A stretch of DNA of 52,133 nt from a phage. Shown here piece after piece: positions 20,746 through 50,013 of this stretch. The stretch lies in sequence record OZ470597.1. One strand, written 5' to 3'. The notes beneath the pieces are model-generated. The model ran no database searches, was not told the origin of the DNA, and saw nothing but the letters and a program-made list of their open reading frames with translations. The translations under genes and the position numbers were made by a program. Position 1 is the first letter of the stretch. Each line of letters begins with the position of its first letter.

Positions 20746-20788
20746 ACTATACACGATCTTACAGCATGCGTTTAGCAAAAAGTGCTAT
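20746..20788 (-). promoter_or_regulatory. conserved-element promoter (ATAGCACTTTTTGCTAAAC + extended -10 TGTATAGT) for Cor-like lipoprotein gene
   Basis: element 20769-20788 on minus strand, -10 at 20746-20751. Confidence 0.5.
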
Positions 20789-20859
20789 TATGTTCTTTTT
20801 GTTCTCGCGTGTTCTCAAATCTGCGGAGTCTTAAATTTAGCTCAAAAAGTGAACAATAA

Positions 20860-21030
20860 TAGAGCACAATACATACAGATAAATATATATACATACATAT
20901 AAATCAATAAGTTAGTAGTATATATATTTATATTCGTTCTTTATTGTTATCTATGTTCTGTGTGATTTTGCGTGTCCGGTGATTTTTATTGTGATTATGC
21001 ATGTGTCAGTGGTTATGTGTGTCTATATAT
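20860..21030. repeat. AT-rich / GT-rich iteron-like noncoding region
   Basis: ATACATACA repeats (20870-20899) and GTGATT(T/A)T repeats at 20962, 20979, 20991 plus GGTTATGTGTG at 21011-21021. Confidence 0.5.
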
Positions 21031-21159
21031 CTATATCCGGCGCAAGTTGAGGAACAAGAGAACAAAAAGACAACAAAGATATTTATCAATCACTTACATG
21101 TAAGTTTTGTTATCTAAGTTGGTTATAACGTTGTTAGAACAGAAAAAACAAAATAACTA

Positions 21160-21187
21160 TTGACTAAACGCATCAAATAGCTACAAT
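21160..21187 (+). promoter_or_regulatory. sigma70-like promoter of recombination module (TTGACT-16-TACAAT)
   Basis: -35 TTGACT 21160-21165, 16-nt spacer, -10 TACAAT 21182-21187, about 30 nt upstream of exonuclease ATG. Confidence 0.5.
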
Positions 21188-21216
21188 GCAGACATACCAA
21201 CCAATGAGGGTAAATC

Positions 21217-22278
21217 ATGAATAAGTTTATGGCGTACACCAGCGAAGAAATGAGCAATGAGCTTTATCACGATCCAGAAGCGTGGACGGCTGATTATGTT
21301 AGTGGATCAAGCCTTGCAGAGATTTACAGCACATGCCCGGCGGCGTGGAAGTTCAAGCCGCGTGAAGATAAGAGCAAGGCGCTAGTTTTCGGTACGCAGT
21401 CGCATACCAACTTTGAAAGCAAGGAGCTTTTCGAAAAAACATATCGCCGTGCGCCAGCGCCAGAAGACTTTAAGGATCTGATAACTAGCCAAACGGCGCT
21501 TGCTGCAAAACTGAAATCATTTGGCCTGAAAGGTACAACCGGAAAGACTTATCCAGACCTTATCAAAATGATGGTGGATTGCGGAGAAGACCTTAACGTT
21601 ATGTGGTTGATTGAGATGATCGCAGAAAGCCAGGCCAGGGCTGACGGCGTACAGCTAATCGAATCTAAAGATTACGATGCGTGCGTTGCAATGCGCCAGG
21701 TTCTGGAATCAATACCGGAACATAACGCATGTATGAATAGCAAGACGGCACAACGTGAATTATCGTTGTTCGGTGAAATTAACGGCGTAAAAGTCAAAGT
21801 GCGATGCGATCACGTTGACGTAACAAAGAACGTCACCGCAACGCTGATTGATGGTTACGATGAAAAAGGTCAGCCGATTTGCCGAGATATTATTTATCCA
21901 GAGGCCATTGTGATCACAGACTACAAAACTACAATGAGCGCGAATCCGGCTGAGTTTATGCGCCTGGCTTACAATCACGGCTATTATTTGAAAATGGCGT
22001 TGCAATGTGATTTATTCAGAAAAGCGTATCCAGAAGAAAAGCGACCTATAGTTGTGCGACTGTTAGCGCAAGAGAAGAAAGAGCCTTATTTGCCGTTGGC
22101 TTTCCGCATGAATAGCGAGCAATTGAAGATCGGGCGCATTCAGTACATGAGCGTAATTAACCAGTTTGCCATGTGCCAGCAACATGACGTTTGGCCTTCG
22201 TATTCAAACGGTGAGCCTGAGGTTTGCCTTGATACTCCTGATTGGGTGCGCCGCCAGTTTAAGCAATATCTTATTTAA
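21217..22278 (+). CDS. recombination exonuclease (PD-(D/E)XK family)
   Basis: 353 aa; RCDHVD and ITDYKTT motifs consistent with PD-(D/E)XK nuclease; sigma70-like promoter TTGACT-16-TACAAT upstream; precedes ERF and SSB. Confidence 0.6.
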   Translation: MNKFMAYTSEEMSNELYHDPEAWTADYVSGSSLAEIYSTCPAAWKFKPREDKSKALVFGTQSHTNFESKELFEKTYRRAPAPEDFKDLITSQTALAAKLKSFGLKGTTGKTYPDLIKMMVDCGEDLNVMWLIEMIAESQARADGVQLIESKDYDACVAMRQVLESIPEHNACMNSKTAQRELSLFGEINGVKVKVRCDHVDVTKNVTATLIDGYDEKGQPICRDIIYPEAIVITDYKTTMSANPAEFMRLAYNHGYYLKMALQCDLFRKAYPEEKRPIVVRLLAQEKKEPYLPLAFRMNSEQLKIGRIQYMSVINQFAMCQQHDVWPSYSNGEPEVCLDTPDWVRRQFKQYLI

Positions 22279-22359
22279 ACAGCACAAATAGCTAAACAAA
22301 TGAAAAATACGGTGTTATAATTCAACGCATAAGTTAACAACAAGAGTAAGGAAATAAGC

Positions 22360-22638
22360 ATGGAAAACAAACAAGTGTCAGAGGTAGCAGTTCATATCAA
22401 TAATTTTGCAACTGGCATGGCTATGTTGCTTCGTGATTTTGTAGCGCCTCTTGATCCAACGGCAGGCGAAGAAGAAATGGAGTACATCAGAAAAGTAATG
22501 GATGCAGTCGATAACGTCGTACTTATTGCAACAATGAGCGAAGACAACGAGGAAGCAATCAAGGCGGTAAAAGAAAGTTCTGATCGCATGATGGAAAATC
22601 TGATTAAATTACACACCAAAGAAGAAACAAAGCATTAA
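22360..22638 (+). CDS. hypothetical protein
   Basis: 92 aa acidic protein between exonuclease and ERF; RBS AAGGAA. Confidence 0.45.
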   Translation: MENKQVSEVAVHINNFATGMAMLLRDFVAPLDPTAGEEEMEYIRKVMDAVDNVVLIATMSEDNEEAIKAVKESSDRMMENLIKLHTKEETKH

Positions 22639-22683
22639 TAGCAATAAGGCGGCGAAAGCCGCCATGAATTACGGGAATTAATC

Positions 22684-23340: not shown

Positions 23341-23345
23341 TTGAC

Positions 23346-23368: not shown

Positions 23369-23383
23369 ACAGGAGAATAAAAC

Positions 23384-23842: not shown

Positions 23843-23847
23843 TCAAC

Positions 23848-29008: not shown

Positions 29009-29062
29009 ATGCACCTCAAACAAAAAGCCTGACAGATGATAACATCATGCCAGGCATTGTTT

Positions 29063-29536
29063 TTAGCAATTAGTGCTTTCAGGTTTATACAGGAATCCGC
29101 CAGGTTCATAATCTGACATTCTTACCACTCGCAACATTTCACGCTTATCACATCTCTTTGTGAGCGGTTTGCCATTGGAATCAAATCGCAGATCTGGACG
29201 GCAGAATGAAGCTCGATAGCCTTGACAGCCATACTTTTTGTAATCGTTATGCACCTTTTGAGCGCCAGCGGCTGAAATCATACCGCGAACACGCCACTGA
29301 TTTACGGTTTGCTGGCTAACGTTAAGACGTTTTGCCATTGCTGACACGCTTCCGTAATACTCAATAAGGATGTCAAGTCGCGCTTTTAGTCCGGCGCGCA
29401 CTTCATCTTTTAAAACATAGTATCCTGTAGGGCGCTTGCGCTTTTTCTTATCTTTACCCCGTCGAGTTCCGTTATTGCCATTAATTGTGCGCTTGTCAAT
29501 CTTGCCTGTTGATACTGCGATTCGCTGTTCTTTCAT
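29063..29536 (-). CDS. HTH-domain DNA-binding protein (putative transcriptional regulator)
   Basis: 157 aa; basic N-terminus and helix-turn-helix SVSAMAKRLNVSQQTVNQW; divergent from helicase gene. Confidence 0.55.
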   Translation of the reverse strand: MKEQRIAVSTGKIDKRTINGNNGTRRGKDKKKRKRPTGYYVLKDEVRAGLKARLDILIEYYGSVSAMAKRLNVSQQTVNQWRVRGMISAAGAQKVHNDYKKYGCQGYRASFCRPDLRFDSNGKPLTKRCDKREMLRVVRMSDYEPGGFLYKPESTNC

Positions 29537-29549
29537 TATTCATTCTCCA

Positions 29550-29592
29550 ATAGCATTTTTTGTTAAACGATGATTTAATGATTGTGTATTAT
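29550..29592 (+). promoter_or_regulatory. conserved-element promoter upstream of helicase gene
   Basis: ATAGCATTTTTTGTTAAAC 29550-29568, 18-nt spacer, -10 TATTAT 29587-29592. Confidence 0.5.
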
Positions 29593-29625
29593 ACACGCCA
29601 AATGGCATTACTCAAAGGTTTTAGA

Positions 29626-31665: not shown

Positions 31666-32071
31666 TAAAGGCGATTATCTGGAGTTTTACGAAAGAGATC
31701 CGACAGATACGCTAAAAGAGGAATCGCACCAGATCGGGGCGTTTCAATGGTTGACTTATGCTCATCCTGAATTACTGGCATGGCATACGAAAAACGAGGG
31801 CGACAAGGGGATCGCCACCGCAATGATGGATCAGCAAGCTGGGCTTGTTAAGGGCGTAAGTGATTTTATCATCCTGATTGGATTAAAAGGTCGTTACCCG
31901 TTCGCGGCAATTGAGATGAAGCGCGTCAATAAGTCCGGCAAGGGTAAGGCTTCACCAGTCAGCAAGGACCAAAAAGCCTTCTTGCGTCGTGTGCGTGAGC
32001 TTGGCGGATTCGCTGCCGTAACATACGGATATAAGCAATTCATGATCGCTGTAGAATACATGATGAAATAG
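31652..32071 (+). CDS. VRR-NUC domain nuclease
   Basis: 139 aa; PD-(D/E)XK-type SDFIILI...AAIEMKR motif typical of VRR-NUC. Confidence 0.6.
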   Translation: MAMTDKGDYLEFYERDPTDTLKEESHQIGAFQWLTYAHPELLAWHTKNEGDKGIATAMMDQQAGLVKGVSDFIILIGLKGRYPFAAIEMKRVNKSGKGKASPVSKDQKAFLRRVRELGGFAAVTYGYKQFMIAVEYMMK

Positions 32072-32111
32072 CACTTTTTGTTAAAACAGGCGCGAAGGAT
32101 TGCGCCATAAT
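32068..32111 (+). promoter_or_regulatory. conserved-element promoter upstream of dam
   Basis: ATAGCACTTTTTGTTAAAAC 32068-32087 overlapping upstream stop TAG; GC-rich inverted repeat spacer; -10 CATAAT 32106-32111. Confidence 0.55.
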
Positions 32112-32145
32112 AACGCCAGTTCAACAAGCAACAGGTAATTAAGAA

Positions 32146-32851: not shown

Positions 32852-33091
32852 ATGCAGAAAGAAAGAAGCGTTTATTTAAATGAAACTGGAGAGTGGTTGT
32901 TATTTCGCGCTATGGTTTGCGAGGCGCTTGATAAAAACGATTTCATAAAACCGCTATTAGGTTGCGATCCGTGGGAATTTACAAGCGCGCTTGACATGAG
33001 CTTCGAGGAAACAAGAAAACTACCGCTTGAAAAATGGCATGAGCAGATCGGTAAAGACTTGCAAGAGTTTTACGAATCAGCATCAAAATAG
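32852..33091 (+). CDS. hypothetical protein
   Basis: ATG 32852 (the listed ORF start 32765 overlaps dam); 79 aa; stop TAG lies inside the next conserved promoter element. Confidence 0.45.
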   Translation: MQKERSVYLNETGEWLLFRAMVCEALDKNDFIKPLLGCDPWEFTSALDMSFEETRKLPLEKWHEQIGKDLQEFYESASK

Positions 33092-33131
33092 CACTTTTTG
33101 TTAAAACGCCCGGCCTTGTGTCGGGCATAAT
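33088..33131 (+). promoter_or_regulatory. conserved-element promoter
   Basis: ATAGCACTTTTTGTTAAAAC 33088-33107 overlapping stop TAG; spacer hairpin GCCCGGCCTTGTGTCGGGC; -10 CATAAT 33126-33131. Confidence 0.55.
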
Positions 33132-33163
33132 TATTTCATCAAAACGAACAAGAGGAAAACAAA

Positions 33164-33343
33164 ATGGTTGTTTACGATCCACGCGCTTTTAAAATTGCTC
33201 AAGAAGTTTCACGCGAATCTGTTGCTGGCGGTTCGGTTAACGGCTATCAGTTTGATTGGTCGGCAGCAATGACCTTGCTTAAGGTTGCATATGGTCACGC
33301 GCCAATTGAAACAGCGGAGGAATATTATAAGCATGAAGGTTGA
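33164..33343 (+). CDS. hypothetical small protein
   Basis: 59 aa ORF with AGAGGA RBS downstream of promoter 33088-33131. Confidence 0.3.
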   Translation: MVVYDPRAFKIAQEVSRESVAGGSVNGYQFDWSAAMTLLKVAYGHAPIETAEEYYKHEG

Positions 33344-36055: not shown

Positions 36056-36247
36056 TTCAATTCTCTTTACAGTAACCAACAAAACGCCGTCATCATCACA
36101 CAAATTATGCTCTGATATGTTAAACGCTCGCATGTCAGAATGAATTAGCGTTAACATTGCGTGCATGAAGTCTTCATGTGAGATTGAACTTACGGCGCAG
36201 AACTTCAATATTTTGTCTATTAGCATTTGACGCAAACAATTCTTCAT
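36053..36247 (-). CDS. hypothetical protein
   Basis: 64 aa ORF with GGAG RBS; overlaps 3' end of 36174..36572 by 74 nt, so uncertain. Confidence 0.25.
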   Translation of the reverse strand: MKNCLRQMLIDKILKFCAVSSISHEDFMHAMLTLIHSDMRAFNISEHNLCDDDGVLLVTVKRIE

Positions 36248-36572
36248 CGCTCATTTCTCCGATCCTTAAAACATCCCTTACCCATTCGTTTTGCATACCT
36301 TCCAGGCTGTAAAGTTCAAACGAGAAAGGGCGATTTGCGGATCCTTTCTTACACCAGAACTTTCCACCAACTCCATCAAGATAACCAGCGGTCATCATTC
36401 TTGCGCAAAACTCTTTTGAAACGGCAGTCGCAAACATTCTCGGCGTAAATCCTGCGGCCCTTGCGAGCCGCTCACATTCTCTATGCTGAAATATAAATTT
36501 CGCTATATGTTGACGTGTAAACCATTCGAATGACTCACACCAGCGATACAGATCCAGAAGAAACATAATCAC
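36174..36572 (-). CDS. hypothetical protein
   Basis: 132 aa; start overlaps stop of upstream large gene (ATGA). Confidence 0.45.
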   Translation of the reverse strand: MIMFLLDLYRWCESFEWFTRQHIAKFIFQHRECERLARAAGFTPRMFATAVSKEFCARMMTAGYLDGVGGKFWCKKGSANRPFSFELYSLEGMQNEWVRDVLRIGEMSDEELFASNANRQNIEVLRRKFNLT

Positions 36573-38152: not shown

Positions 38153-38177
38153 TGATGATAACTCCTTTTGATGCGGC

Positions 38178-38221
38178 AATAATACCGCACCAATGCTACC
38201 CGCATTTAACAAAAAATGCTA
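38178..38221 (-). promoter_or_regulatory. conserved-element promoter for 36569..38152 gene
   Basis: minus-strand ATAGCATTTTTTGTTAAAT (38204-38221) and -10 TATTAT (38178-38183). Confidence 0.5.
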
Positions 38222-38440
38222 TTTTATCCGCTCTATGCTAACTAGGATTTTTTCTGGTTCCCTTGCGCTATGGCAATGCGCGGTTACGGAATCAACAAAA
38301 TCAAAATAAAGTGATTTGTGGTAAGAAAGACCAATCAGCCATCCAACCATCGTTTTCTTTATTGGCCTGACTATATCGCCAGGCTTGAAGGTTTTTGTTG
38401 CTGAATGAGTCACCTTATAGCGATATTCAGTCTTGATCAT
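38219..38440 (-). CDS. hypothetical protein
   Basis: start tentatively at ATG 38440 just downstream of the HNH stop. Confidence 0.3.
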   Translation of the reverse strand: MIKTEYRYKVTHSATKTFKPGDIVRPIKKTMVGWLIGLSYHKSLYFDFVDSVTAHCHSAREPEKILVSIERIK

Positions 38441-38447: not shown

Positions 38448-38945
38448 CTATTTCCCGTGGTTTTCATGGAATCCATAATCAATCAACAATCTATCTCTTT
38501 CTGATATAGCCGACTCCAAGCATGTGTGCCACCCGCCATAAATCAATCTACCATCAACCCTCACATTAACCTTGTATTTACCCCTATTTTCGTACCAGAT
38601 AATACCTATATGACCGCTTGTATTGTTAGACCGCATGGATAAATTTCGTCCGTTTATCGACCTTGTAACCAGCCTCAAGTTTTCTATCCTGTTATCAGTT
38701 CTGTCATGGTTTAAGTGATCAACCTCCATGTTTGGCGGAATATCTCCGTTATGCATAATCCAAACAACCCTGTGAGCATAAATCTGCACACCTTCTATAG
38801 TTAGCTTTACATACCCTTTGCTGTTTACGGTTCCAGCCTCAAGACTACGTTTTCTACCCTTTCTCCATTCCTTCCAGTAAAGAATCCCGTCGTCGTATCT
38901 TAGTTGACTTAGAAGTATTTCGCTTGAAATTTTGCAGTTGCACAT
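38448..38945 (-). CDS. HNH homing endonuclease
   Basis: 165 aa; MEVDHLNHDRTDNRIENLRL HNH motif, C-terminal DYGFHENHGK; GGAGG RBS; 5' end overlaps upstream gene by 37 nt. Confidence 0.8.
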   Translation of the reverse strand: MCNCKISSEILLSQLRYDDGILYWKEWRKGRKRSLEAGTVNSKGYVKLTIEGVQIYAHRVVWIMHNGDIPPNMEVDHLNHDRTDNRIENLRLVTRSINGRNLSMRSNNTSGHIGIIWYENRGKYKVNVRVDGRLIYGGWHTCLESAISERDRLLIDYGFHENHGK

Positions 38946-39292
38946 TCGAAACCCTCCTCGCAGCGATATAGAGTAAAACGATCACCTTGTTCGTCGTAAA
39001 CATACCCAGCAACAGCGCCAAGAACTCTACCACTTTCCACTTGATATCTCTTTCCTTTCTTGAAAGTTTTCTTAACGCTAAGAGAATGGTCAACGCAAGT
39101 GCAAAGTATTGTTTTTGTCTTGATATGACGATAGTCAGACTCAACAGCGTTTTGCCACTTGCTACCCTTTGTAATGCTCTTTACCTGGAATTGTTCCAAC
39201 TCGATCACATCATCGCTACCAGCAATTTTTTCGTATACAGCTTTATAACGACCGTTCATCAAAACGTTGGTTTTATTGCAGATAACTTTCAT
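38909..39292 (-). CDS. hypothetical protein
   Basis: 127 aa, AAGGAG RBS, conserved promoter element upstream. Confidence 0.5.
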   Translation of the reverse strand: MKVICNKTNVLMNGRYKAVYEKIAGSDDVIELEQFQVKSITKGSKWQNAVESDYRHIKTKTILCTCVDHSLSVKKTFKKGKRYQVESGRVLGAVAGYVYDEQGDRFTLYRCEEGFECATAKFQAKYF

Positions 39293-39323
39293 CGTTTATT
39301 TCTCCTTTCGTTTCGGTGAAGTG

Positions 39324-39367
39324 ATTATGCCAGGCTTTTACACCTGGCTTTTAACAAAAAGTGCTAT
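39324..39367 (-). promoter_or_regulatory. conserved-element promoter for 38909..39292 gene
   Basis: minus-strand ATAGCACTTTTTGTTAAAAG (39348-39367), spacer hairpin GCCAGGTGTAAAAGCCTGGC, -10 CATAAT (39324-39329). Confidence 0.55.
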
Positions 39368-40050
39368 TTTGCGTTAGCTTCAAAGACGGCGCGAGCAAAA
39401 CCGCGCGGTGTGAGGGAGCGGAGTTGCTTTGTTCTGGCAGACTTACCGCCTAAAAACTTCCAACCCCAAAAGAACATTACGCCCTCATCATTGCATAACG
39501 GCTTGCGTTCCGGTTCGGTAAATCCGTTGCCGCACCAGATAGCCGTCCTTTTTGTGTAGCCATCCTTTAGCGGCATCTTGGGGTGAAAAGATCCATCGGA
39601 TTCGTCCAGGTAGTTACCAAAATCGCGCGGATTGAAATAAAAATCAGGCTTGCGCCATAGCGTTGATAGTCGGCCTACAGGATTCTCAGCCATCCAGGGA
39701 ACACCGAAATGATTCCCGACAGTTTCAACCATGATTGCATTTTTGAGCGCGACCTGAACATCATCATCGCTTCGCGCGTGCTTGATTCCTGATTGGGCAA
39801 ACATGGTGCAGTCTGGAAATCCAAATACAATATCTGGTTTTGGAATATCCATCTTACTGATTCTTTCAATGAAATTTTCATCAATCCACATATTCACATA
39901 ATGCAGATTTTCATGCTTCATCTTGATGAAATATTCGCCGTGATTTCCTTCATCAGCGTTAAAGCAATAGCATTGATAGCCAGCCTTAGCATATTCAAGC
40001 AGCATGATTCCAGATCCATCAAACATTGAGTAAGCAACTTTATTTCCCAT
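39364..40050 (-). CDS. C5-cytosine methyltransferase-like protein (divergent, compact)
   Basis: FDGSG (motif I-like), GFPDC (motif IV PC-like), ENP (ENV-like) at spacing typical of C5-MTases; start uncertain (ORF extends to 40110, overlapping the HNH gene). Confidence 0.4.
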   Translation of the reverse strand: MGNKVAYSMFDGSGIMLLEYAKAGYQCYCFNADEGNHGEYFIKMKHENLHYVNMWIDENFIERISKMDIPKPDIVFGFPDCTMFAQSGIKHARSDDDVQVALKNAIMVETVGNHFGVPWMAENPVGRLSTLWRKPDFYFNPRDFGNYLDESDGSFHPKMPLKDGYTKRTAIWCGNGFTEPERKPLCNDEGVMFFWGWKFLGGKSARTKQLRSLTPRGFARAVFEANAK

Positions 40051-40567
40051 GATTTTTATGATACCCCAATTCATTCTCGGCTTTACGTTTTGCGGCAACA
40101 GCATCTCCAAAACTGGAGAAACAACCTATATAAATCCTACATCCTCGCTTTCCGCTTCCAACCCTTACAACCCATTTTCCATGTTTATTTTTATGCACAC
40201 CTGGTATGCCACTTGTATTGTTTTTCTGCTTTGATGTGTTTCGCATATTTCCTTTGTGATCTTTTAATTCAAAGTTTATTGCTCTGTTATCAGTAGTAAT
40301 GTGATTTACGTGATCAACCTCCATTCCTTCCGGTATAGGCCCATAGTGCATTTCATAGCATATTCTATGAACTTTCAGATTATAACGCTTTCCATTTACA
40401 GTAAGTGCGGTTTCTAAATATCGACCACCACTACCCAAAGAGCCAACCTCATTACCAGCATTGCAAGCATTCCATTGTTTAACTCTTGATTGGTGAATAT
40501 CTTTTCTTTCTTTCCAGAACAGCTTTCCAGTTTCTGGATTGTATGTAAAGTAATCGTGCCAATTCAT
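40040..40567 (-). CDS. HNH homing endonuclease (paralog)
   Basis: 175 aa; MEVDHVNHITTDNRAINFEL HNH motif, C-terminal ELGYHKNHGK; GAGGTGA RBS. Confidence 0.8.
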   Translation of the reverse strand: MNWHDYFTYNPETGKLFWKERKDIHQSRVKQWNACNAGNEVGSLGSGGRYLETALTVNGKRYNLKVHRICYEMHYGPIPEGMEVDHVNHITTDNRAINFELKDHKGNMRNTSKQKNNTSGIPGVHKNKHGKWVVRVGSGKRGCRIYIGCFSSFGDAVAAKRKAENELGYHKNHGK

Positions 40568-40957: not shown

Positions 40958-41185
40958 TCAGACAGCCTTCCAGCTTTCAATAAACATGCTGTTTTCTTCC
41001 AGCAGTTTAATCAATTCTTCGCGTGTATATTTTCGGATTTTACTACCAGGATGCGAGCCAACAACAAACACACCTTTACCGCTTGTGATTGTTAACTGGT
41101 TGATTCCACAAGATTTATCCATTTTCACAGCGACGCGGTGATGTGCATCAATAGTGTGCATGATGTTAGTGACTTTAGCTTTCAT
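40958..41185 (-). CDS. hypothetical protein
   Basis: start at ATG 41185 with GAGG RBS. Confidence 0.45.
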   Translation of the reverse strand: MKAKVTNIMHTIDAHHRVAVKMDKSCGINQLTITSGKGVFVVGSHPGSKIRKYTREELIKLLEENSMFIESWKAV

Positions 41186-41359
41186 TATGCAATCCTCATT
41201 ATATTTGGTGTGGTAACTATACCAGGTTTGAGAAATATTGTTTATCAATTATTGCTATCAGTTGAAATAGCTATGGCGCTTTGCTCGCTTTCCGCCTCCG
41301 CCATAATGATCATTTGCAACAGCTACCATCCAGGAATTATGGAATATTATTAGCTTCAT

Positions 41360-41641
41360 CTAATTAATGCCAACAACGTTAAAACTTACAGCTTTTGTTG
41401 CGCTAAACACATACGCTTCAACAGCCTCACCAAATACACGAATTTTTCCATAGCCGTACTGCGCATTCATATTGCGCCAAACCGTCCTGTTAGAGCAGAA
41501 CGCGCTACCAGTCTTGATGAGATTATCCATCTCTTTTCTTATGTCATGATAATCAAGCCAGAATCTATAAGCGCGTTGTTTAATGAGTTTCGCCTTGATT
41601 GTTTCGGCTGAGTTTTTAAAATCGCTGTTTTTGTAGGCCAT
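41360..41641 (-). CDS. hypothetical protein
   Basis: 93 aa, GGAGG RBS, start overlaps upstream stop (TAATG). Confidence 0.5.
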   Translation of the reverse strand: MAYKNSDFKNSAETIKAKLIKQRAYRFWLDYHDIRKEMDNLIKTGSAFCSNRTVWRNMNAQYGYGKIRVFGEAVEAYVFSATKAVSFNVVGIN

Positions 41642-41835
41642 TACACAACCTCCATAAAAGTATTGAATCCACGCAGTTTGAAAGCGTTGCCATGTTTAAC
41701 AACGTTCCATGTCAGGCCGGAGTGATACGCAACCATATCATCAAGATCAATGGTGATGATAGCGCCTTTCTTAAAGATTCCTTTCTCGTGAGTGGTGTCA
41801 CGCTGTGCAACTTTAACATCAACCTGTGTTTCCAT
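41641..41835 (-). CDS. hypothetical protein
   Basis: 64 aa; conserved promoter element and conserved leader upstream. Confidence 0.5.
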   Translation of the reverse strand: METQVDVKVAQRDTTHEKGIFKKGAIITIDLDDMVAYHSGLTWNVVKHGNAFKLRGFNTFMEVV

Positions 41836-41866
41836 TTTTAAATCCTAGTTCGTTGTCGATGCGCTT

Positions 41867-41910
41867 AATATACCAATCAGAGGCGCATCGGTTTTAACAA
41901 AAAGTGCTAT
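41867..41910 (-). promoter_or_regulatory. conserved-element promoter for 41641..41835 gene
   Basis: minus-strand ATAGCACTTTTTGTTAAAAC (41891-41910), -10 TATATT (41867-41872). Confidence 0.5.
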
Positions 41911-42197: not shown

Positions 42198-42339
42198 AGT
42201 CAACAACTCCAAATTCGTTTACGATTTGCGCCTTGTAGAAGCCGCCATTTTTCGCAAGGTTGTAGCATGCCGCCACAGTTTCAAATTCGCGCACTTCCGG
42301 CTGGCTGTTTTCGTGTTCCCAGGTAATCAGAGTAACCAT
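42187..42339 (-). CDS. hypothetical small protein
   Basis: 50 aa ORF (MVTLITWEHENSQ...) behind a duplicated promoter-leader module. Confidence 0.35.
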   Translation of the reverse strand: MVTLITWEHENSQPEVREFETVAACYNLAKNGGFYKAQIVNEFGVVDYEF

Positions 42340-42372
42340 TTTCAAATCCTCGCATTCGTTGTCGATGTGTGT

Positions 42373-42416
42373 AATGTACAGTAATACGATGATTGAGTTT
42401 TAACAAAAAGTGCTAT
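42373..42416 (-). promoter_or_regulatory. conserved-element promoter for 42187..42339 gene
   Basis: minus-strand ATAGCACTTTTTGTTAAAAC (42397-42416), -10-like TACATT (42373-42378); leader conserved with the 41867-41910 copy. Confidence 0.45.
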
Positions 42417-43210: not shown

Positions 43211-43248
43211 TTGCTATCTCCTGATGGGTATCTCGTTTCGATGTGTGC

Positions 43249-43292
43249 ATTATGCCAAATCCAGTCAGGCACGTTTTAACAAAAAGTGCCAT
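43249..43292 (-). promoter_or_regulatory. conserved-element promoter for 42939..43210 gene
   Basis: minus-strand ATGGCACTTTTTGTTAAAAC (43273-43292), -10 CATAAT (43249-43254). Confidence 0.55.
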
Positions 43293-43611
43293 TTGCTGAC
43301 TGGTCATTATTCCATCTATTCCATTAATCAGGAATAACAGGAATAACTCATTCTCGATCACCTGGATTGTGAGACTTTGAGTTTGATCAATTTTAATCAG
43401 TTGATTAACTTTTTGTGTGGAGGGGATAGAGAAACGCGATCCTCTCGCATCCTTTCCGGCAATCCTGGTGAGCGCAACTGTTGTCTTCTGTTATCGCTGT
43501 TGTGCGTGTTATTCCGGCGTGGAATCGCATAACAAAAAATAACAAGAAAAATCCATATAACATACTAAAAAATAAGGATTATTTATTTATATGTATCTAT
43601 AAATTATTATC

Positions 43612-43690
43612 TGTTATGTGTGTTATGTGGTTATATTGATACCTGGTGTATTTTTGGTGGTTGTGTGTGGTTGTGTGTTGGTTGGTGTGT
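43612..43690. repeat. GT-rich tandem repeats in divergent early control region
   Basis: TGTTATGTG x2 (43612-43629) and GGTTGTGTG x2 (43659-43677); shares GGTTATGTG-type motif with 20860-21030. Confidence 0.5.
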
Positions 43691-43890
43691 ATATATGGGG
43701 TGTGGGGCGTATCCGCGCATTTTTAGATAACACGCAAAAACAACATTGATTTATAAGAAAAAAAAACGCGAATCTTGTTATGTTATGAAAAGATAACATC
43801 GGAAAACCGCCGGTAACAATAAAAAACAGTTGACACACCAGGTGGCGGTAAATGATGATGCAGTCACTGAGTCACGAGGAGGTATAAAGC

Positions 43891-44617: not shown

Positions 44618-44661
44618 ATAGCACTTTTTGTTAAAACGCCAGGCGCAAAACCTGGCATAAT
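44618..44661 (+). promoter_or_regulatory. conserved-element promoter
   Basis: ATAGCACTTTTTGTTAAAAC 44618-44637 overlapping stop; spacer hairpin GCCAGGCGCAAAACCTGGC; -10 CATAAT 44656-44661. Confidence 0.55.
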
Positions 44662-44694
44662 AGCCTCATCGAAACGAGATTGAGGAAAACAAAA

Positions 44695-45081: not shown

Positions 45082-45125
45082 ATAGCACTTTTTGTTAAAA
45101 CTCAAAAACGATAACCAGGCATAAT
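45082..45125 (+). promoter_or_regulatory. conserved-element promoter
   Basis: ATAGCACTTTTTGTTAAAAC 45082-45101; -10 CATAAT 45120-45125. Confidence 0.55.
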
Positions 45126-45180
45126 GCATCATATAGGGCGGCACGGCGTCGCCCACTAAAACCAATCAGGAGAAAGCACC

Positions 45181-46068
45181 ATGTTAAAACTTGCTGACAT
45201 TAAATTCCCGATCACCTTCGAATCTCGCGGCGTTGGTCATTTCATGTTTACCGACGAGAAGACATGCACTAAGTTTAACGAATACGGAAGTCCAAACGCT
45301 TCAACAATGGAGATTGAATACTTCATTGAAGCGCACAATAAACACTACAACTCACTCAGAGACTACGGTTACGCAATGCCAGGCTACACATGTTTGCACT
45401 ATGAGCCATATAAGGGCCAGGTGTTACCAGTGCGCTCACCGGAACGCGCAGAGATTCATACGGTCGATATGAAAACCTGCGACTACAAAAAATTGTGGTG
45501 CTTAAGCGTGGATAACATCAAGTATCCGATTGTTTTTCATTGTGGCGGTTCAACAATCAGGTTCACATCACGCGACAATGGCGTTTATAGCGATGGTACG
45601 AAATCAGAGTTGAAAGTTGATTTATTTGTTAATGGTCACAACAAATTCAATCCACACAATGAAGAGGATAAGGTGTACTACGTGGAAGATGTTACAAAAC
45701 ACTTGTTTGGAGAAACACCATTCGGCGGCGGAAAGACGTCAATTCAGAAAATCATTGGCGAGGAGATCCACAAAGCTGCTACCGAAATGAAAGCGCCTGG
45801 ACGCTGGCGTATTGATAAGAGCGCCTTTGCAAATCAAGAAATCGTAACGCAGGGCGCTATTGAAGACATGCCAGTTGCCGCCACGCTAAAAGGAGTTCAG
45901 CTTGATGATGGTATGTGGTTTGAAGTAACGGCAAAACCAAAGACGATCGAGATTCATGATGATGTTGTTATTCTTCTACTTCATTACGGTAGCGCAAAAA
46001 ACCGTACCGTTGCGGGTGAGATTAGCATCAAGCGCGGAACGATGGTTAAGTGGAAGGTGAAAGTGTAA
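45181..46068 (+). CDS. hypothetical protein with internal duplication
   Basis: 295 aa; repeated segments IKFPITFESRGVGHFMFTDEKT and IKYPIVFHCGGSTIRFTSRDNG; CAGGAG RBS. Confidence 0.55.
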   Translation: MLKLADIKFPITFESRGVGHFMFTDEKTCTKFNEYGSPNASTMEIEYFIEAHNKHYNSLRDYGYAMPGYTCLHYEPYKGQVLPVRSPERAEIHTVDMKTCDYKKLWCLSVDNIKYPIVFHCGGSTIRFTSRDNGVYSDGTKSELKVDLFVNGHNKFNPHNEEDKVYYVEDVTKHLFGETPFGGGKTSIQKIIGEEIHKAATEMKAPGRWRIDKSAFANQEIVTQGAIEDMPVAATLKGVQLDDGMWFEVTAKPKTIEIHDDVVILLLHYGSAKNRTVAGEISIKRGTMVKWKVKV

Positions 46069-46111
46069 ATAGCACGAATTGTTAAAACTCAAATGTGGGG
46101 CCAAGTATAAT
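46069..46111 (+). promoter_or_regulatory. conserved-element promoter (variant)
   Basis: ATAGCACGAATTGTTAAAAC 46069-46088; -10 TATAAT 46106-46111. Confidence 0.5.
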
Positions 46112-46141
46112 GGCCTCACTTTCAACGAAGGAGATAAAACG

Positions 46142-46580: not shown

Positions 46581-46591
46581 TAGGTTTGATA

Positions 46592-47131: not shown

Positions 47132-47289
47132 CCTGGTTACTTTTAATCTTTGTCACAAGTTACAATTCCGCCGCTATTGAATCGCAAGAGTTCCACGGCG
47201 AATCAAGATGCCAGGAAGCACGAAAACAAGTTGTTCTCCACATGTCAGATAGTGGGAAAGATGTAACAGCGCTATGCGTTCGTAAATAG
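47128..47289 (+). CDS. hypothetical small protein with signal-peptide-like N-terminus
   Basis: 53 aa ORF, start overlaps upstream stop (ATGA); stop TAG inside conserved promoter element. Confidence 0.3.
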   Translation: MTWLLLIFVTSYNSAAIESQEFHGESRCQEARKQVVLHMSDSGKDVTALCVRK

Positions 47290-47329
47290 CACTTTTTGCA
47301 AAAACACATTATCGGGCTTGCGGTATAGT
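47286..47329 (+). promoter_or_regulatory. conserved-element promoter (variant)
   Basis: ATAGCACTTTTTGCAAAAAC 47286-47305; -10 TATAGT 47324-47329. Confidence 0.5.
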
Positions 47330-47360
47330 AAGCCAATCGACAACAAGCGAGGATTAAATC

Positions 47361-47624
47361 ATGGTTAATAAAGTTGAGTTTTTCAAAGCGGTAGACAAGA
47401 TTGACGGCGCGCCAAGTTTCTTTGCTATCCATTCCATTGACGGCGAAGACGTTGCATACAACGTGATTAGTCGAGACGGTATATCAAAACTTAGTGATCT
47501 GGTGGGTTATATTGTGGCAAACGGGAAATGTGCATGGCCAGATTCGCCACGAGAGCCGCGCCGCCGCGACATGCAAAATCCAGTCCTGCTTTACACGCTG
47601 GTAATTGAAGGAGTCAACAAATGA
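47361..47624 (+). CDS. hypothetical protein
   Basis: 87 aa; GAGGA RBS; downstream of promoter 47286-47329. Confidence 0.45.
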   Translation: MVNKVEFFKAVDKIDGAPSFFAIHSIDGEDVAYNVISRDGISKLSDLVGYIVANGKCAWPDSPREPRRRDMQNPVLLYTLVIEGVNK

Positions 47625-48000: not shown

Positions 48001-48591
48001 ATGAAACGAGACATTATCATCCTTAACGGACCGCCAGGAGTTGGCAAAGATACGCTTGCGGCATACTTAACGGGCCATCGTTACGCAGCGGTTAAAGCGT
48101 CATTTAAACAGCCTATGTTCGATATTGCATTCTCCATGCTTGGCGTTTACCGATATGACGAGTTCATTGATCTGTATAACGACCGTGAGCAGAAAGAAAA
48201 GCCTCAAGCAATCTTGCAAGGCAAGTCTCCGCGACAATTCATGATCTGGATTAGCGAAGAAGTCATGAAGCCAGCTTTTGGCGAGCAATATTTTGGGAAT
48301 CGCATGGTTGAGCAAGTACACGAGATGTACAGAGATTTAGCTGTTGTAATTAGTGATGGAGGATTCCCTGAAGAAATCAAGCCGCTCGTTAAGGCAGGCC
48401 ATGAAGTTCACATTTGCCGACTGCATCGCGAAGGCTTCACGTTTGATGGCGATTCACGAAACTATATTGACCTGAGCGGATACCATCACCGAGTAAAACA
48501 TTACGACTTCACAATGATTGATGGCGATCCAGAAAAGACTGTTGACGAGATCATCAAAACTGTCAAGTGGAAACACATTAAGATCAAATAG
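48001..48591 (+). CDS. P-loop kinase (polynucleotide kinase / dNMP kinase-like)
   Basis: Walker A GPPGVGKDT at N-terminus; start at ATG 48001 with GGAG RBS (ORF extends to 47986). Confidence 0.6.
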   Translation: MKRDIIILNGPPGVGKDTLAAYLTGHRYAAVKASFKQPMFDIAFSMLGVYRYDEFIDLYNDREQKEKPQAILQGKSPRQFMIWISEEVMKPAFGEQYFGNRMVEQVHEMYRDLAVVISDGGFPEEIKPLVKAGHEVHICRLHREGFTFDGDSRNYIDLSGYHHRVKHYDFTMIDGDPEKTVDEIIKTVKWKHIKIK

Positions 48592-48631
48592 CACGAATTG
48601 CTAAAAGCGGGGCGCAATGCCTCGCTATAAT
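48588..48631 (+). promoter_or_regulatory. conserved-element promoter (variant)
   Basis: ATAGCACGAATTGCTAAAAG 48588-48607; -10 TATAAT 48626-48631. Confidence 0.5.
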
Positions 48632-48661
48632 GCAAAAACCAATCAACGAAAGGACTTGGAT

Positions 48662-49066
48662 ATGTTAGATCTTCACAAAATCCGCGTAGGCACAAAATTT
48701 GTTGTAACCTGGGTATATGATGAGCGATGCGGCATTCGTAAAGGTGAGATTGTAACGGCTTCCGATCGCTATATCGGATCGTTAAAAGAGTTTAACCGAC
48801 CGCGCATTAAGAATGGCTATATCATTACTCGACGACTTGGCTTTGATCATTATTGCGTAGTGGCAACTCAAGGCTTTTTGATTGAGCTTAAGCGAATCAG
48901 AGATCATCGCGGCTGCCATGTTAAGACAATGAAGATACCATTTCAGCAAGCGCGATACGATGCGCGACGTATGCGCCGACTTGCGCGAAATGCGATCAAG
49001 TTCAAAAAGCCTGATAATGTTTTTTACGGCATGTACAAGGGGATTGCGCGAAATGCTGGGAAATAA
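48662..49066 (+). CDS. hypothetical protein
   Basis: ATG 48662 with AAGGA RBS downstream of promoter 48588-48631. Confidence 0.45.
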   Translation: MLDLHKIRVGTKFVVTWVYDERCGIRKGEIVTASDRYIGSLKEFNRPRIKNGYIITRRLGFDHYCVVATQGFLIELKRIRDHRGCHVKTMKIPFQQARYDARRMRRLARNAIKFKKPDNVFYGMYKGIARNAGK

Positions 49067-49165
49067 CAACAACGCAACAAATCCAAAGCCGCCATTTAAT
49101 TTTCATGAAATCATGATTGTGTTATTCTTGATTCTCTTAGTTGTTTATTCAGTGAGGGCCGCAAT

Positions 49166-49429
49166 ATGGTTTTTAATGCACTAAAACGAATCTTTAAACC
49201 TGAATACCGGATCGTTGCTTGCACAGAATGCAAGATTTATTACCTGCAACGCCGCCGCGTTATTAGTGGCGATTGGGAATACCTAACGGATGATGCTTTC
49301 GGCTTTTGGGTTATGGAGTTCAATAGCTACAGTGAAGCGCGTGAGTACGCTAAAAAGTTGCACAAGTTCCGACCTTACAAACTGCGTTTACTGGTTGTTA
49401 AAAAATGCGATGTGTGGGATCACGAATGA
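49166..49429 (+). CDS. hypothetical protein
   Basis: 87 aa; GAGGG RBS. Confidence 0.45.
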   Translation: MVFNALKRIFKPEYRIVACTECKIYYLQRRRVISGDWEYLTDDAFGFWVMEFNSYSEAREYAKKLHKFRPYKLRLLVVKKCDVWDHE

Positions 49430-49554
49430 AAAGAGTAATTATCATTTTTATTGCCGTTATCGCTGGTTGCTACCTGGCTTATAATTATCCGTTATTGCTG
49501 GTTGCTACCTGGCTTATAATTATAGCGGCATTGTTGAGTCAATCGGCGGGTTGA
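49426..49554 (+). CDS. hypothetical small membrane peptide containing a 35-bp tandem repeat
   Basis: 42 aa hydrophobic ORF overlapping upstream stop (ATGA); coding status uncertain. Confidence 0.25.
   Translation: MKRVIIIFIAVIAGCYLAYNYPLLLVATWLIIIAALLSQSAG
49454..49523 (+). repeat. tandem direct repeat, 2 x 35 bp
   Basis: CCGTTAT(C/T)GCTGGTTGCTACCTGGCTTATAATTAT at 49454-49488 and 49489-49523, one mismatch. Confidence 0.85.
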
Positions 49555-49683
49555 TTATCTTCATGGCTGGCGGGTATGCTGGCTATTGTGATGGATTCGA
49601 AAACGGTAAGCGTTACATGCTGACCGAAAAAAAAGAAGTAATGTTAACCGCGCCGCTTCGGTGGCGCTAAAAGGAGGAAGCAA

Positions 49684-49971
49684 ATGGCTAAAAGCTATCG
49701 TAAAATGTTGATTAACGCATTCGAAAAGGCAGCGCTTGAGCGTGGTTGGAATGACTCATTTCACACAGCAAACTGTATCCGCCGTTACGGATTCAAGAAT
49801 TGCCGCTCATGGGCGCGTCAAATGGCTTCATGGTATGATCTTGATGCGCATTACCTTGATATGGATTGCGCGCTGGTTGAAATGATTGAGCAGGCAGCGC
49901 TAGAGGATCGACCATTGACGCAATCTGATTTTGACGATTTTGTTCGCGATGAAATCTATTACATGAGCTAA
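49684..49971 (+). CDS. hypothetical protein
   Basis: 95 aa; AAAGGAGG RBS. Confidence 0.5.
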   Translation: MAKSYRKMLINAFEKAALERGWNDSFHTANCIRRYGFKNCRSWARQMASWYDLDAHYLDMDCALVEMIEQAALEDRPLTQSDFDDFVRDEIYYMS

Positions 49972-50013
49972 TAGCACTTTTTGTTAAAACTTCCGCGAGG
50001 GCATTTGTTAAAG
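49971..50013 (+). promoter_or_regulatory. conserved-element promoter
   Basis: ATAGCACTTTTTGTTAAAAC 49971-49990; extended -10-like TGTTAAAGT 50005-50013. Confidence 0.45.

Follow-up and report, generated by a model that had tools for sequence, protein, structure and literature searches.

A 20-bp box repeated through the genome of a T1-like coliphage is probably a marbox in class II promoter position

The genome of a Hanrivervirus-type member of the Drexlerviridae, a virulent T1-like coliphage, raises the question of what reads a 20-bp box (ATAGCACnnnTTGnTAAAnn) that recurs in it, in 17 strong and 2 degenerate copies, where chance would give practically none (0.01 expected). The window analyzed here is the whole 52,133-nt stretch of OZ470597.1. 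A search with the 20-mer allowing up to 3 mismatches gave 16 matches against 0.01 expected, which confirms the recurring element described in the initial annotation, and a PWM scan recovered all 17 positions listed there, including the ‘GAA’ variant at 48588, with two starts (6343 and 38204) corrected to 6342 and 38203. The same scan added two degenerate copies that had been missed, at 29060(-) and 41239(-). The consensus, A-T-A-G-C-A-C-n-n-W-T-T-G-Y-T-A-A-A-n-n, is asymmetric: among the modules described below, GCAC and TTG carry about 2 bits at each position, as do A1, C7 and A17-18, and positions 8-10, 14, 19 and 20 are variable. A partial dyad, TAGCA-N5-TGCTA, lies inside the box with its center at about -42, and its mates are unequal, with G4 at 2.0 bits and C14 at 0.8, while A1, C7 and A17-18 have no symmetric partner.

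The box forms part of an intergenic module of about 76 nt, in which the upstream stop codon, box, spacer, -10 hexamer, discriminator, +1, Shine-Dalgarno sequence and start codon follow one another. The gap between box and hexamer is 17-18 nt in 18 of the 19 window copies and exactly 18 nt in 14 of them, a narrower range than the 18-22 nt given earlier; across 91 modules from five genomes it is 18 nt in 67 (74%) and 17-19 nt in 80, and the 18-nt spacer is without sequence constraint. The hexamer, with the consensus TAtaaT (T 1.4, A 2.0, T 1.2, a, a, T 2.0 bits) and a G at -14, has the profile of the sigma70 -10 element, and a TG at -15/-14 accompanies it in 20 of 67 modules. A 6-nt discriminator leads to a conserved start region, A-TCGAAACGA, and the leader ATCGAAACGA, which would be transcribed, is conserved among modules. 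Placing the putative +1, an A, 7 nt after the hexamer puts the box, with an 18-nt spacer, at about -50..-31.

Orientation with the downstream gene, earlier reported for 15 copies, holds for 17 of the 19; in these the start codon follows the hexamer by about 26-37 nt, with an outlier of 55 nt at 45082. A Shine-Dalgarno sequence and start codon lie downstream of 75 of 80 modules at a median distance of 32 nt, and the 76 nt from box start to start codon match the report for phage TLS (PMC11447400). The genes concerned are early and DNA-metabolism genes. The view that in most copies the upstream gene ends at the TAG or TAA inside the box stands in part, as the internal TAG serves in just 7 of 19; elsewhere a TAA abuts or overlaps base 1 of the box (4 copies), a TGA lies 9 nt upstream (1 copy), or the stop falls within the 3' part of the box (1 copy).

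A -35 element is absent from these modules. The non-canonical -35 noted in the initial annotation is borne out by a mean match to TTGACA of 1.59 of 6 at the canonical position, and a canonical sigma70 promoter was rejected, with no -35-like hexamer found 16-18 nt upstream of the -10. In the window as a whole, canonical -35/-10 pairs are not enriched over shuffles (25 vs 33 expected, and 33 vs 35 expected). A sigma54 promoter, defined by a GG-N10-GC arrangement in which GG stands at -24 and GC at -12, was also rejected: most copies have AG instead of GG, the -10 is of sigma70 type, and by inspection the TTGC variants fall 2 bp short in their G-to-GC spacing. These features support the earlier suggestion of a promoter class with a good -10 that probably depends on a factor.

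Two early arms lie in the right part of the window. The leftward arm begins with a module of the ATGGCAC variant at 43212..43292(-). Further leftward modules lie at 42340..42416(-), which lacks a hairpin and precedes a small gene starting at 42339; at 41836..41910(-), where an 8-bp stem brackets the -10 ahead of gene 41641..41835; and at 41186..41258(-), a degenerate module (ATAGCAATAATTGATAAACA, 17 nt, TATAGT) before a small gene starting at 41185. The rightward arm begins at 44618..44694(+), whose orthologous spacer hairpin in G29-2 is annotated as an ARNOLD terminator. It is followed by modules at 45082..45180(+), with a longer leader that has its own hairpin, before gene 45181..46068; at 46069..46141(+), of the ‘GAA’ class (17 nt, TATAAT) with a 9-bp stem bracketing the -10; at 47286..47360(+), where the stem GGCTT/AAGCC brackets the -10 before gene 47361..47624; at 48588..48661(+), again of the ‘GAA’ class, before a gene starting at 48662; and at 49971..50046(+), where a stem brackets the -10 (TAAAGT) before gene 50047..50304.

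Among the DNA-metabolism genes, the primase gene follows a degenerate module at 29009..29079(-) (AAAGCACTAATTGCTAAAAA, 18 nt, TATCAT), whose box overlaps the stop codon of a Cro-like regulator gene. The helicase gene follows the module at 29550..29625(+) (17 nt, TATTAT), the -10 of which overlaps that of the divergent, canonical sigma70-like promoter of the same regulator gene. The module at 32068..32145(+), with a hairpin within its spacer, precedes the Dam methyltransferase gene, and the VRR-NUC gene stops at the TAG inside this box; that at 33088..33163(+), with a spacer hairpin flagged as terminator-like, precedes 33164..33343 and the operon beyond. Leftward modules lie at 38153..38222(-), where a hairpin brackets the -10 before a DNA helicase gene with its real start at 38152; at 39293..39367(-), with a hairpin within the spacer, before a core gene without assigned product (38909..39292); and at 20715..20788(-) (17 nt, TATAGT, leader), before a cor-like gene (20487..20714).

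The two late-region copies point against their flanking genes, as previously observed for 6342(-) and 10102(-). The reversed box at 6342..6361(-) precedes the major capsid gene and lacks a same-strand -10 at 17-19 nt; read on the + strand, its reverse complement with 3 nt added makes TGCTATCAT, an extended -10 directed to the capsid gene, and this reversed box is conserved in G29-2, TH30 and Vc1. The other copy, with an 18-nt spacer and TAGCAT (10078..10121, -), lies in antisense direction, with the major tail gene on one side and the chaperone gene on the other, and transcription from it would run into a bidirectional terminator.

A GC-rich inverted repeat had been described in the spacer; it is real and statistically supported, and in about half of the cases it brackets the -10 instead. 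Folding energy of the region -33..+2 is -9.2 kcal/mol vs -3.8 for shuffles, and when modules exchange their discriminators the energy rises from -8.05 to -5.84 +/- 0.13; the hairpins co-vary within modules. A hairpin is absent in 12 of 76 modules, its position varies between the inside of the spacer and the surroundings of the -10, and Rfam gave no family match. An intrinsic terminator consists of a GC-rich stem-loop with a U-tract directly after it. Some spacer hairpins precede T-rich sequence and were called terminators, and two orthologues are annotated as ARNOLD terminators in G29-2; the hairpins that bracket the -10 are followed by ATCGAAACGA, which is not U-rich. The hairpins would occupy the sole free positions of the module, spacer and discriminator, and their most likely target is the read-through RNA of genes lying upstream, which they would stabilize at the 3' end or weakly terminate.

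A motif search of related genomes, proposed earlier as a check, found the box in 91 modules with the same consensus in six genera, in which TerL is just 50-69% identical. The modules are also retained in a Drexlerviridae phage recorded as infecting Vibrio cholerae. The repeat itself is already known: a 21-nt direct repeat, aaATAGCACnnnTTGnTAAAA, has been published for phage TLS and also for T1, Rtp and Rogue1 (Kropinski, Misra and co-workers 2024, PMC11447400), and its authors left the function open between a stoperator, an enhancer site and an UP-like element. What is new here is the match to the Escherichia coli marbox.

The marbox has been defined as gcannwwntgnnaaa or GCAC-N7-AAA (PMC12052159, PMC8811837). 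In a class II promoter it lies forward, with GCAC distal and AAA proximal, and overlaps the -35 position with its center between about -36 and -55, as the phage box would. Exact hits to the former number 19 in the window vs 1.9 in shuffles (maximum 5), and each of the 17 strong copies fits the definition at all 10 positions that it specifies; the positions at which the phage box varies are those at which the marbox is degenerate, and A3, T11 and T15 are conserved beyond it. The phage consensus is identical to the marRAB marbox at 16 of 20 positions and to the micF box at 14 of 20, and a PWM derived from the phage copies picks the true marboxes of micF and marRAB, with the mar box as top hit in the mar control region. 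The micF promoter has a forward box at -51..-32 (center -41.5), an 18-nt spacer, TAGAAT and no -35, which is the geometry of the phage module. RamA binds micF at about -41, and its CACT-7X-AAA pattern is that of the phage box. In Salmonella, class II marbox promoters have a mean TTGACA match of 1.9 (PMC10268841), close to the phage value. Taken together, the sequence, spacing and conservation of the box suggest that it is probably a consensus-grade marbox in class II position, and a candidate site for MarA, SoxS and Rob.

These stress regulators of the host, together with RamA in Klebsiella and Salmonella, are monomeric dual-HTH activators of the AraC family. We consider it reasonably probable that the modules are class II marbox promoters activated by host MarA, SoxS or Rob (RamA in Klebsiella); the sequence, its geometry and conservation and the missing -35 are what the data show, and the transcription start site, the binding of the protein and activation are inferred from them. 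A host activator, probably pre-bound to RNA polymerase, would dock on the box and replace -35 recognition via contacts with sigma region 4 and the alpha-CTD, and the sigma70 holoenzyme would then open the -10. The phage would thereby gain about 17 strong, uniform promoters for early and DNA-metabolism genes without a polymerase or sigma factor of its own. Neither an HMM search of the six-frame ORFs from five genomes nor Pfam on 30 ORFs turned up a MarA-like protein of phage origin. In a Keio screen with the TLS-like phage LL5, just LPS, tolC, secB and ppiB mutants were reported, with rob, marA and soxS unmentioned, so plating does not require any one factor at the threshold of an about 20-fold drop in plating efficiency. 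In addition, standard growth leaves Rob largely in aggregates and MarA and SoxS in short supply (PMC10268841), which makes the supply of activator at the start of infection uncertain.

The extra conservation at A3, T11 and T15 and the partial dyad count against host activation of the modules in that they leave room for a second, phage-encoded reader, and a conserved Cro-like regulator, a 132-aa core protein and the presence of modules in the Vibrio-labelled phage were also counted against it. The box might accordingly be read by a phage protein that activates in class II fashion or represses as an early shut-off, perhaps competing with host factors, with the likeness to the marbox coincidental or secondary; we hold this to be rather unlikely. 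In its uniformity the box is like phage-specific promoter systems, and no rob, marA or soxS phenotype was reported for LL5. A chance match at 10 of 10 marbox positions with the orientation and 18-nt spacing of micF would be very unlikely, and binding of such sites by the Rob, MarA and SoxS of the host would be expected in any case. The Cro-like regulator (29063..29536) is a core gene with 54-70% identity across genera, above TerL and above the major capsid protein and primase (both about 45-60%), and has its own canonical promoter (TTGAGT-16-TATAAT), with a box downstream of it. Its single HTH is of the Cro type, a kind that binds dyad operators as a dimer, whereas conservation of the box is asymmetric, and its recognition helix has no invariant residue in the first eight positions in six genomes with an identical box consensus; this fold and the unconserved helix make the regulator a poor candidate reader. 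The 132-aa winged-helix-like protein (36174..36572) has an invariant SKEF in its putative recognition helix and fold matches mostly to winged-helix proteins, but these are weak and not significant (E > 0.2), and its gene stands at the end of a box-driven operon, which speaks against a role as primary activator.

Two further explanations dispense with an activator. An UP element is an A/T tract at about -59..-38 without specific G/C requirement, and the box could be an UP-like or -35 substitute for the alpha-CTD or sigma region 4 in activator-independent sigma70 promoters with a strong -10, which we judge improbable. The hexamers are near consensus, some with the TG noted above, the box holds TTGnTA, TTAAAA and an A/T-rich center, the LL5 screen brought out no host factor, and a resemblance to UP elements was proposed by the TLS authors (PMC11447400). 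However, TTGnTA and TTAAAA lie 22 nt and 19-20 nt from the -10 in the window copies, beyond the working range of a -35, and the TTGACA match at the proper position is low. The UP-element-like reading of the initial annotation is not supported either, since the G/C-containing GCAC and TTG, not A/T tracts, are the most informative and the box sits 8-9 bp downstream of the place of an UP element; strict conservation of 20 bp across genera is likewise atypical for elements read by polymerase only. Less probable still, in our view, is that the repeats are no promoter determinant and act as stoperator-like roadblocks, or with the hairpin as an RNA signal for termination, processing or stability. They stand between genes and along transcription, as the TLS authors noted in likening them to L5 stoperators (PMC11447400), and the hairpins are significantly enriched and co-vary, with the two orthologous spacer hairpins annotated in G29-2 and the terminator-like one in the window. 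A register held at 18 nt from a hexamer that bears the sigma70 A-11/T-7 signature belongs to promoters at the DNA level and not to RNA elements or roadblocks, the box has no conserved pairing partner, and the variable and sometimes missing hairpins, without an Rfam family, are better explained as a second, nested function. An L5-type stoperator was rejected on the strict register to the -10.

If the modules are indeed read by host activators, the efficiency of infection would be tied to the antibiotic, oxidative or bile stress state of the host and to up-mutations of mar or ramA in strains with multidrug resistance. The reversed box over the extended -10 before the major capsid gene would repress, and hundreds of replicating genomes with about 19 boxes each could titrate a limited pool of activator and so set early-to-late timing. 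It is a speculative and, at present, doubtful extension that a whole family of virulent phages of enterobacteria (T1, TLS, Rtp, Klebsiella Webervirus and others) uses host MarA, SoxS, Rob and RamA for early-promoter recognition, which would link infection to the stress state, with capsid-box repression and activator titration timing the early-late switch.

Among known systems, the TLS repeat is the same element: its central triplet falls into the same T, G and A sub-classes, its orientation agrees, and the start codon likewise follows at about 76 nt, although its description did not include the fixed -10 partner, the co-variation of the hairpin or the identity with the marbox (PMC11447400). 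The stoperators of mycobacteriophage L5 are alike in being many, asymmetric, intergenic and all oriented along transcription, but they are repressor roadblocks of a temperate phage without fixed register to a -10, whereas the register here is strict and the phage virulent. The T4 middle promoters combine a good -10 with a box that replaces the -35 and is read by an activator acting together with sigma region 4; that box is 9 bp centered at -30 and is read by phage MotA with AsiA, whereas the present one spans 20 bp at -50..-31, and no MotA-, AsiA- or AraC-like protein was found among 30 phage ORFs scanned with Pfam. The marRAB marbox (ATGCCACGTTTTGCTAAATC), so similar in sequence to the phage family consensus, differs in its reverse, class I-type placement upstream of a -35 element. 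Finally, the class II promoters of Enterobacteriaceae that depend on MarA, SoxS, Rob or RamA (such as micF, fumC, rfaY and lpxL) share with the phage modules an asymmetric box of 20 bp that has GCAC-N7-(Y)AAA and a TG at 12-13, which lies forward over the -35 position with its center at about -41 and an 18-nt gap to a sigma70 -10, and in both a -35 cannot be recognized. Host marboxes are degenerate and serve one promoter each, whereas the 52 kb of the phage hold about 19 consensus-grade copies that are nearly identical, to which the phage adds A3, T11 and T15, the conserved leader and the nested hairpins.

Allowing up to 3 mismatches, the 20-mer ATAGCACTTTTTGTTAAAAC is found at sixteen sites in the window where chance predicts 0.01, and a weight-matrix scan returned 17 strong copies of the element (hereafter the box) with scores of 24–38, the maximum in shuffled sequence being 14.8. 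Every position that the initial annotation had assigned to a repeat family of about 17 copies was recovered by the matrix, which added two degenerate copies at 29060 (-) and 41239 (-), counted as real because the same spacing rule holds for them. In 18 of the 19 copies the box is followed, at a distance of 17 or 18 nt (18 nt in 14 copies), by a hexamer of type TAnnnT. Seventeen copies face a gene, and these have an SD sequence and a start codon about 26–37 nt further on, with one outlier at 55 nt. The consensus of the box is A-T-A-G-C-A-C-n-n-W-T-T-G-Y-T-A-A-A-n-n. The association with upstream stop codons noticed earlier stands in part: the internal TAG ends the upstream gene in 7 of the 19 copies, and 4 others have a TAA that adjoins or overlaps the first base of the box.

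The module, comprising box, spacer, -10 hexamer, leader, SD sequence and start codon, is conserved across the family. The 20-mer, which had been proposed for a search of related T1-like genomes, is present in 12–22 copies, with the same architecture as in the window, in each of five further genomes, namely TH30 (Nouzillyvirus), mtp9 (Klebsiella Webervirus), two Braunvirinae phages and Vc1 (Jhansiroadvirus); TerL identity to the window phage is 50–69% in these relatives, with the Vc1 TerL left out of the comparison. Fragments of T1, TLS and Rtp have the same architecture, and the consensus of the box is unchanged across six genera. Of 91 modules taken from five genomes, 67 have a spacer of exactly 18 nt and 80 one of 17–19 nt, and an SD sequence and start codon follow 75 of 80 modules, at a median of 32 nt past the hexamer. 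Information content is about 2 bits per position at -51 to -44 (aATAGCAC), with further informative box positions at -40 to -38 (TTG) and -36 to -33 (TAAA), and is essentially zero at the 18 spacer positions. The G at -14 is informative, and positions -12 to -7 read T (1.4 bits), A (2.0), T (1.2), a, a, T (2.0), which gives the A-11/T-7 signature of a sigma70 -10 element. Position +1 is an A of 1.3 bits, followed by TCGAAACGA at 0.6–0.9 bits.

This initial transcribed sequence, A-TCGAAACGA, is conserved about 7–18 nt past each -10 hexamer (e.g., 44668-44679), at 0.6–1.3 bits per position over 67 modules from five genomes, and promoter escape, mRNA 5'-end stability, translation and a second protein site are candidates for its role. 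Vc1, a Drexlerviridae phage recorded from Vibrio cholerae under a host label of uncertain reliability, keeps about 14 modules, which would speak against simple dependence on a host factor if the label is right and V. cholerae lacks MarA-like factors; about 20 records in the family bear implausible “Campylobacter phage” labels. These records and that of “Vibrio phage Vc1” are ordinary Drexlerviridae genomes, one Campylobacter-labeled record having a TerL 91% identical to that of the window coliphage, and host labels in Drexlerviridae should be treated with caution.

The consensus of the box suggested a marbox, the binding site of Escherichia coli MarA, SoxS and Rob, and this lead was checked on actual host promoters and on definitions from the literature. 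In the definition of the Grainger laboratory, a marbox is the non-palindromic sequence 5'-gcannwwntgnnaaa-3' (PMC12052159); the phage cores GCACTTTTTGTTAAA and GCACGAATTGCTAAA fit it at 10 of 10 specified positions. Exact matches to this definition number 19 in the window, compared with 1.9 in shuffles (maximum 5), and 12–18 per relative; the degenerate positions of the marbox are the variable positions of the phage box (8–10, 14, 19 and 20), and the asymmetric positions A1, C7 and A17–A18 carry about 2 bits each. A cryo-EM study of RamA gives the class II micF site as CACT-7X-AAA, centered at about -41 (PMC8811837), and the phage box similarly reads CAC(T/G)-7X-AAA. The micF promoter of MG1655 consists of ACAGCACTGAATGTCAAAAC, 18 nt and TAGAAT, with the box at -51 to -32 from the annotated 5' end (center -41.5), and a weight matrix built from phage boxes only ranks the micF marbox first in this promoter. 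Likewise, in the marRAB control region the phage matrix places the operon's own marbox, ATGCCACGTTTTGCTAAATC, first, with 16 of 20 positions identical to the phage family consensus. Class II marbox promoters have a forward box over the -35 position, a canonical -10 and start site, and an unrecognizable -35 (mean 1.9 matches), and the Rob–RNAP and SoxS–RNAP structures have sigma70 displaced from the -35 (PMC10268841). At the level of sequence, the phage box has every defining feature of a class II marbox that can be tested in this way.

The repeat itself has already been published. A 2024 re-annotation of phage TLS described a direct repeat of 21 nt (consensus aaATAGCACnnnTTGnTAAAA) that occurs 18 times between genes, co-oriented with transcription and about 76 nt 5' of start codons, the distance that also separates box start from start codon in our modules; it divided the repeats into sub-classes T, A and G, and noted comparable repeats in T1, Rtp and Rogue1 (PMC11447400). 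Its authors assigned no function, raised stoperators, enhancer-binding sites and UP elements, and counted the repeat among the open questions of T1-like phages (PMC11447400). The Rogue1 and AHP24 genome papers do not mention the repeat, and our literature search found no link between marboxes and phage promoters. What is added here is the identification of the repeat as a consensus marbox placed in the class II register, and this reading offers a specific, testable answer to the published question.

The combination of a good -10, the lack of a -35 (mean match to TTGACA at the canonical -35 position, 1.59 of 6) and a conserved 20-bp box in strict register suggests that these promoters are read by a factor contacting both the box and RNA polymerase. 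The initial annotation was right in kind in proposing a factor-dependent class with a non-canonical -35, and wrong in its option of an UP element, which the position and base content of the box rule out. Taking TTGnTA as the -35 would require a spacer of 22 nt; by inspection, sigma54 and sigma28 promoters have the wrong spacing and conserved bases, and a sigma70 -10 is present; and a reverse-strand promoter inside the box fails as a general explanation since the flanks are not conserved, the copy upstream of the capsid gene being the exception. Activator-independent initiation, for which the good -10 would speak, appears improbable given the lack of a -35, and the window shows no excess of canonical -35/-10 pairs (25 versus 33 expected; 33 versus 35 expected). 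Readings in which the box acts as a roadblock or only in RNA leave the promoter register aside and are very improbable; Rfam and tRNA scans gave no matches.

As to what reads the box, we consider it fairly likely that the phage promoters are activated by the host MarA/SoxS/Rob family, and host factors would be the simplest answer. MarA, SoxS and Rob recognize the marbox sequence, as does RamA in Klebsiella and Salmonella, and Rob has the highest affinity (PMC10268841). The known hosts of the phage family are Enterobacteriaceae, and a box without drift in six genera is expected if its reader is a conserved host protein. Phage polymerase–promoter pairs, such as those of T7, T3 and SP6, co-diverge. 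Against simple dependence on a host factor, a screen of the Keio collection with the TLS-like phage LL5 reported only LPS, tolC, secB and ppiB mutants, with rob, marA and soxS unmentioned (PMC7229145), which rules out that any single one of these three genes is essential for plating; its threshold was a drop of about 20-fold in plating efficiency, with redundancy of the three paralogs, basal activity and smaller burst-size effects outside its reach. On the same side, class II activation is reported at 2–4-fold (PMC8811837) up to about 10-fold, and Rob is mostly aggregated in standard growth (PMC10268841). A phage-encoded protein as the primary reader seems unlikely to us. An HMM of MarA, SoxS and the N-terminal domain of Rob, run on ORFs from all six frames of five genomes, gave no match (best E 0.048, with that hit on the wrong strand), and Pfam detected no AraC/HTH_18 domain in 30 ORFs, mostly from early regions. 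The sole annotated regulator, at 29063..29536 (-), carries one HTH of Cro type (matched by Foldseek to Xfaso-1 Cro, TM 0.73) and, contrary to expectation, is a core gene with 54–70% identity across genera, above the capsid protein and primase. However, its conserved part is an invariant N-terminal basic motif, DKRTxNGNNGTRRGxDKKxRKR, and the first eight positions of its recognition helix (SQQTVNQW, TRQAVEEW, SIQVVQQW, CVRLTNAY) have no invariant residue in genomes that share the box consensus; moreover, the partial dyad TAGCA-N5-TGCTA is conserved asymmetrically (G4 2.0 bits, its mate C14 0.8). The case for this Cro-like protein is thus weakened, though it may still read the box. A 132-aa core protein at 36174..36572 (-) (phrog_2794, “YdbL” in some records) has a confident AlphaFold model (pLDDT 83) with weak fold matches, mostly to winged-helix DNA-binding proteins; because SKEF is invariant in its putative recognition helix, it is kept as a candidate second reader, either of the box or of the conserved leader.

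Over an 8-kb stretch, the window shares 95–96.5% identity with the Hanrivervirus coliphages haarsle, damhaus, G29-2 and pSf-1 (Drexlerviridae, Tempevirinae), and its genes are arranged as in T1-like phages. From 1 to ~20.4 kb the + strand carries the late structural operon. It is followed by recombination genes (21–24 kb), a leftward block of tail fiber, primase and regulator (24–29.5 kb), a rightward replication and lysis block (29.6–36 kb) and two early blocks, one leftward (36 to 43.4 kb) and the other rightward and made up of small genes (43.9 to 52.1 kb). Modules precede the helicase, Dam methylase, primase, second helicase and cor-like genes and small genes of both early arms, and no forward-orientation module occurs in the late structural operon of the window. 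The regulator has a canonical-looking promoter, TTGAGT-16-TATAAT, at 29615..29588 on the minus strand (within 29537-29626); its -10 overlaps that of the divergent helicase-gene box promoter, and the box sits at about +12 to +31 of the regulator transcript. The leftward early block contains two HNH endonuclease genes (Pfam HNH_3), at 38448-38945 (-) and 40040-40567 (-), which are missing from most relatives and are probably mobile homing-endonuclease insertions. Between the divergent early arms, about 600 bp with few genes (43293-43890) hold three A-rich direct repeats CATAACAAAAAATAA, long-range inverted repeats, a terminator-like hairpin at 43700-43718 and the best canonical sigma70-like promoter, TTGACA-18-GATGAT (43830-43859); the stretch might serve as an origin or in control or packaging. 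The DUF7174 protein behind that promoter was rejected as a candidate, not being core (only 5 homologs, missing from five relatives). In the rightward arm, 49454-49523 (+) is a tandem duplication in perfect register of a 35-nt unit, CCGTTAT(C/T)GCTGGTTGCTACCTGGCTTATAATTAT, each copy having a small hairpin and then TTATAATTAT.

The GC-rich inverted repeats reported in the spacers proved real, with -33 to +2 folding at -9.16 kcal/mol versus -3.78 in shuffles (mean z -2.7); of 76 unique modules, 20 contain a perfect stem of 6 bp or more, versus 2.4 expected. Exchanging the 8 nt past the hexamer between modules raised the mean energy from -8.05 to -5.84 ± 0.13, and the complementarity is therefore module-specific, that is, compensatory co-variation. 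The hairpin lies inside the spacer in 32 modules and brackets the -10 in 31, where the 5' half of the spacer pairs with the discriminator (e.g., GGGGTA...TATAGT...TACCCC); 12 modules have none. Such stems would be absent from RNA begun at +1 and can form only in DNA or in read-through RNA from the upstream gene, whose stop codon sits in or beside the box. In G29-2, ARNOLD terminators are annotated at two orthologous spacer hairpins, and one in the window is flagged as terminator-like. We tentatively suggest, with low confidence, that the hairpins are 3'-end stabilizers or weak terminators for the upstream message, placed in the sole unconstrained promoter positions; alternatively, they may affect promoter opening at the DNA level.

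If confirmed, activation by the MarA/SoxS/Rob family would mean that a lytic phage family runs its early program through a host stress and antibiotic-resistance regulon, in place of a polymerase, sigma factor or activator of its own; our literature search found no earlier case of a lytic phage family using such a regulon. Drexlerviridae, notably the Webervirus phages of Klebsiella, are frequent candidates for phage therapy, over-expressed MarA or RamA is common among multidrug-resistant isolates, and the regulon is induced by salicylate, bile salts and redox drugs; therefore, phage–antibiotic interactions and performance in the gut could depend on the marbox link. The 76-nt cassette would, in addition, be a compact, portable and stress-responsive promoter part.

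Two copies in the late region are reversed. The copy at 10102 (-) has TAGCAT as a -10 at 18 nt and, within 10040-10121 (-), is aimed at the bidirectional terminator aaaaaaaggggcgcaacgcccctt that follows the major tail gene; the arrangement is identical in G29-2 and could yield an antisense RNA of about 45 nt. The copy at 6342 (-), upstream of the major capsid gene, lacks its own -10. On the + strand (6342-6364), the reverse complement of the box with three flanking bases reads TGCTATCAT, compared with TGCTATTAT in TH30 and TGCTATATT in Vc1, and equivalents of this reversed box lie at 15244, 15118 and 5711 in the genomes of relatives L001, L122 and L130, respectively. As a lead rather than a finding, TGCTATCAT may be an extended -10 towards the capsid gene, and since the box overlaps it, a box-binding protein would repress, a repressor-type arrangement like that of MarA and SoxS at pbpG (PMC12052159).
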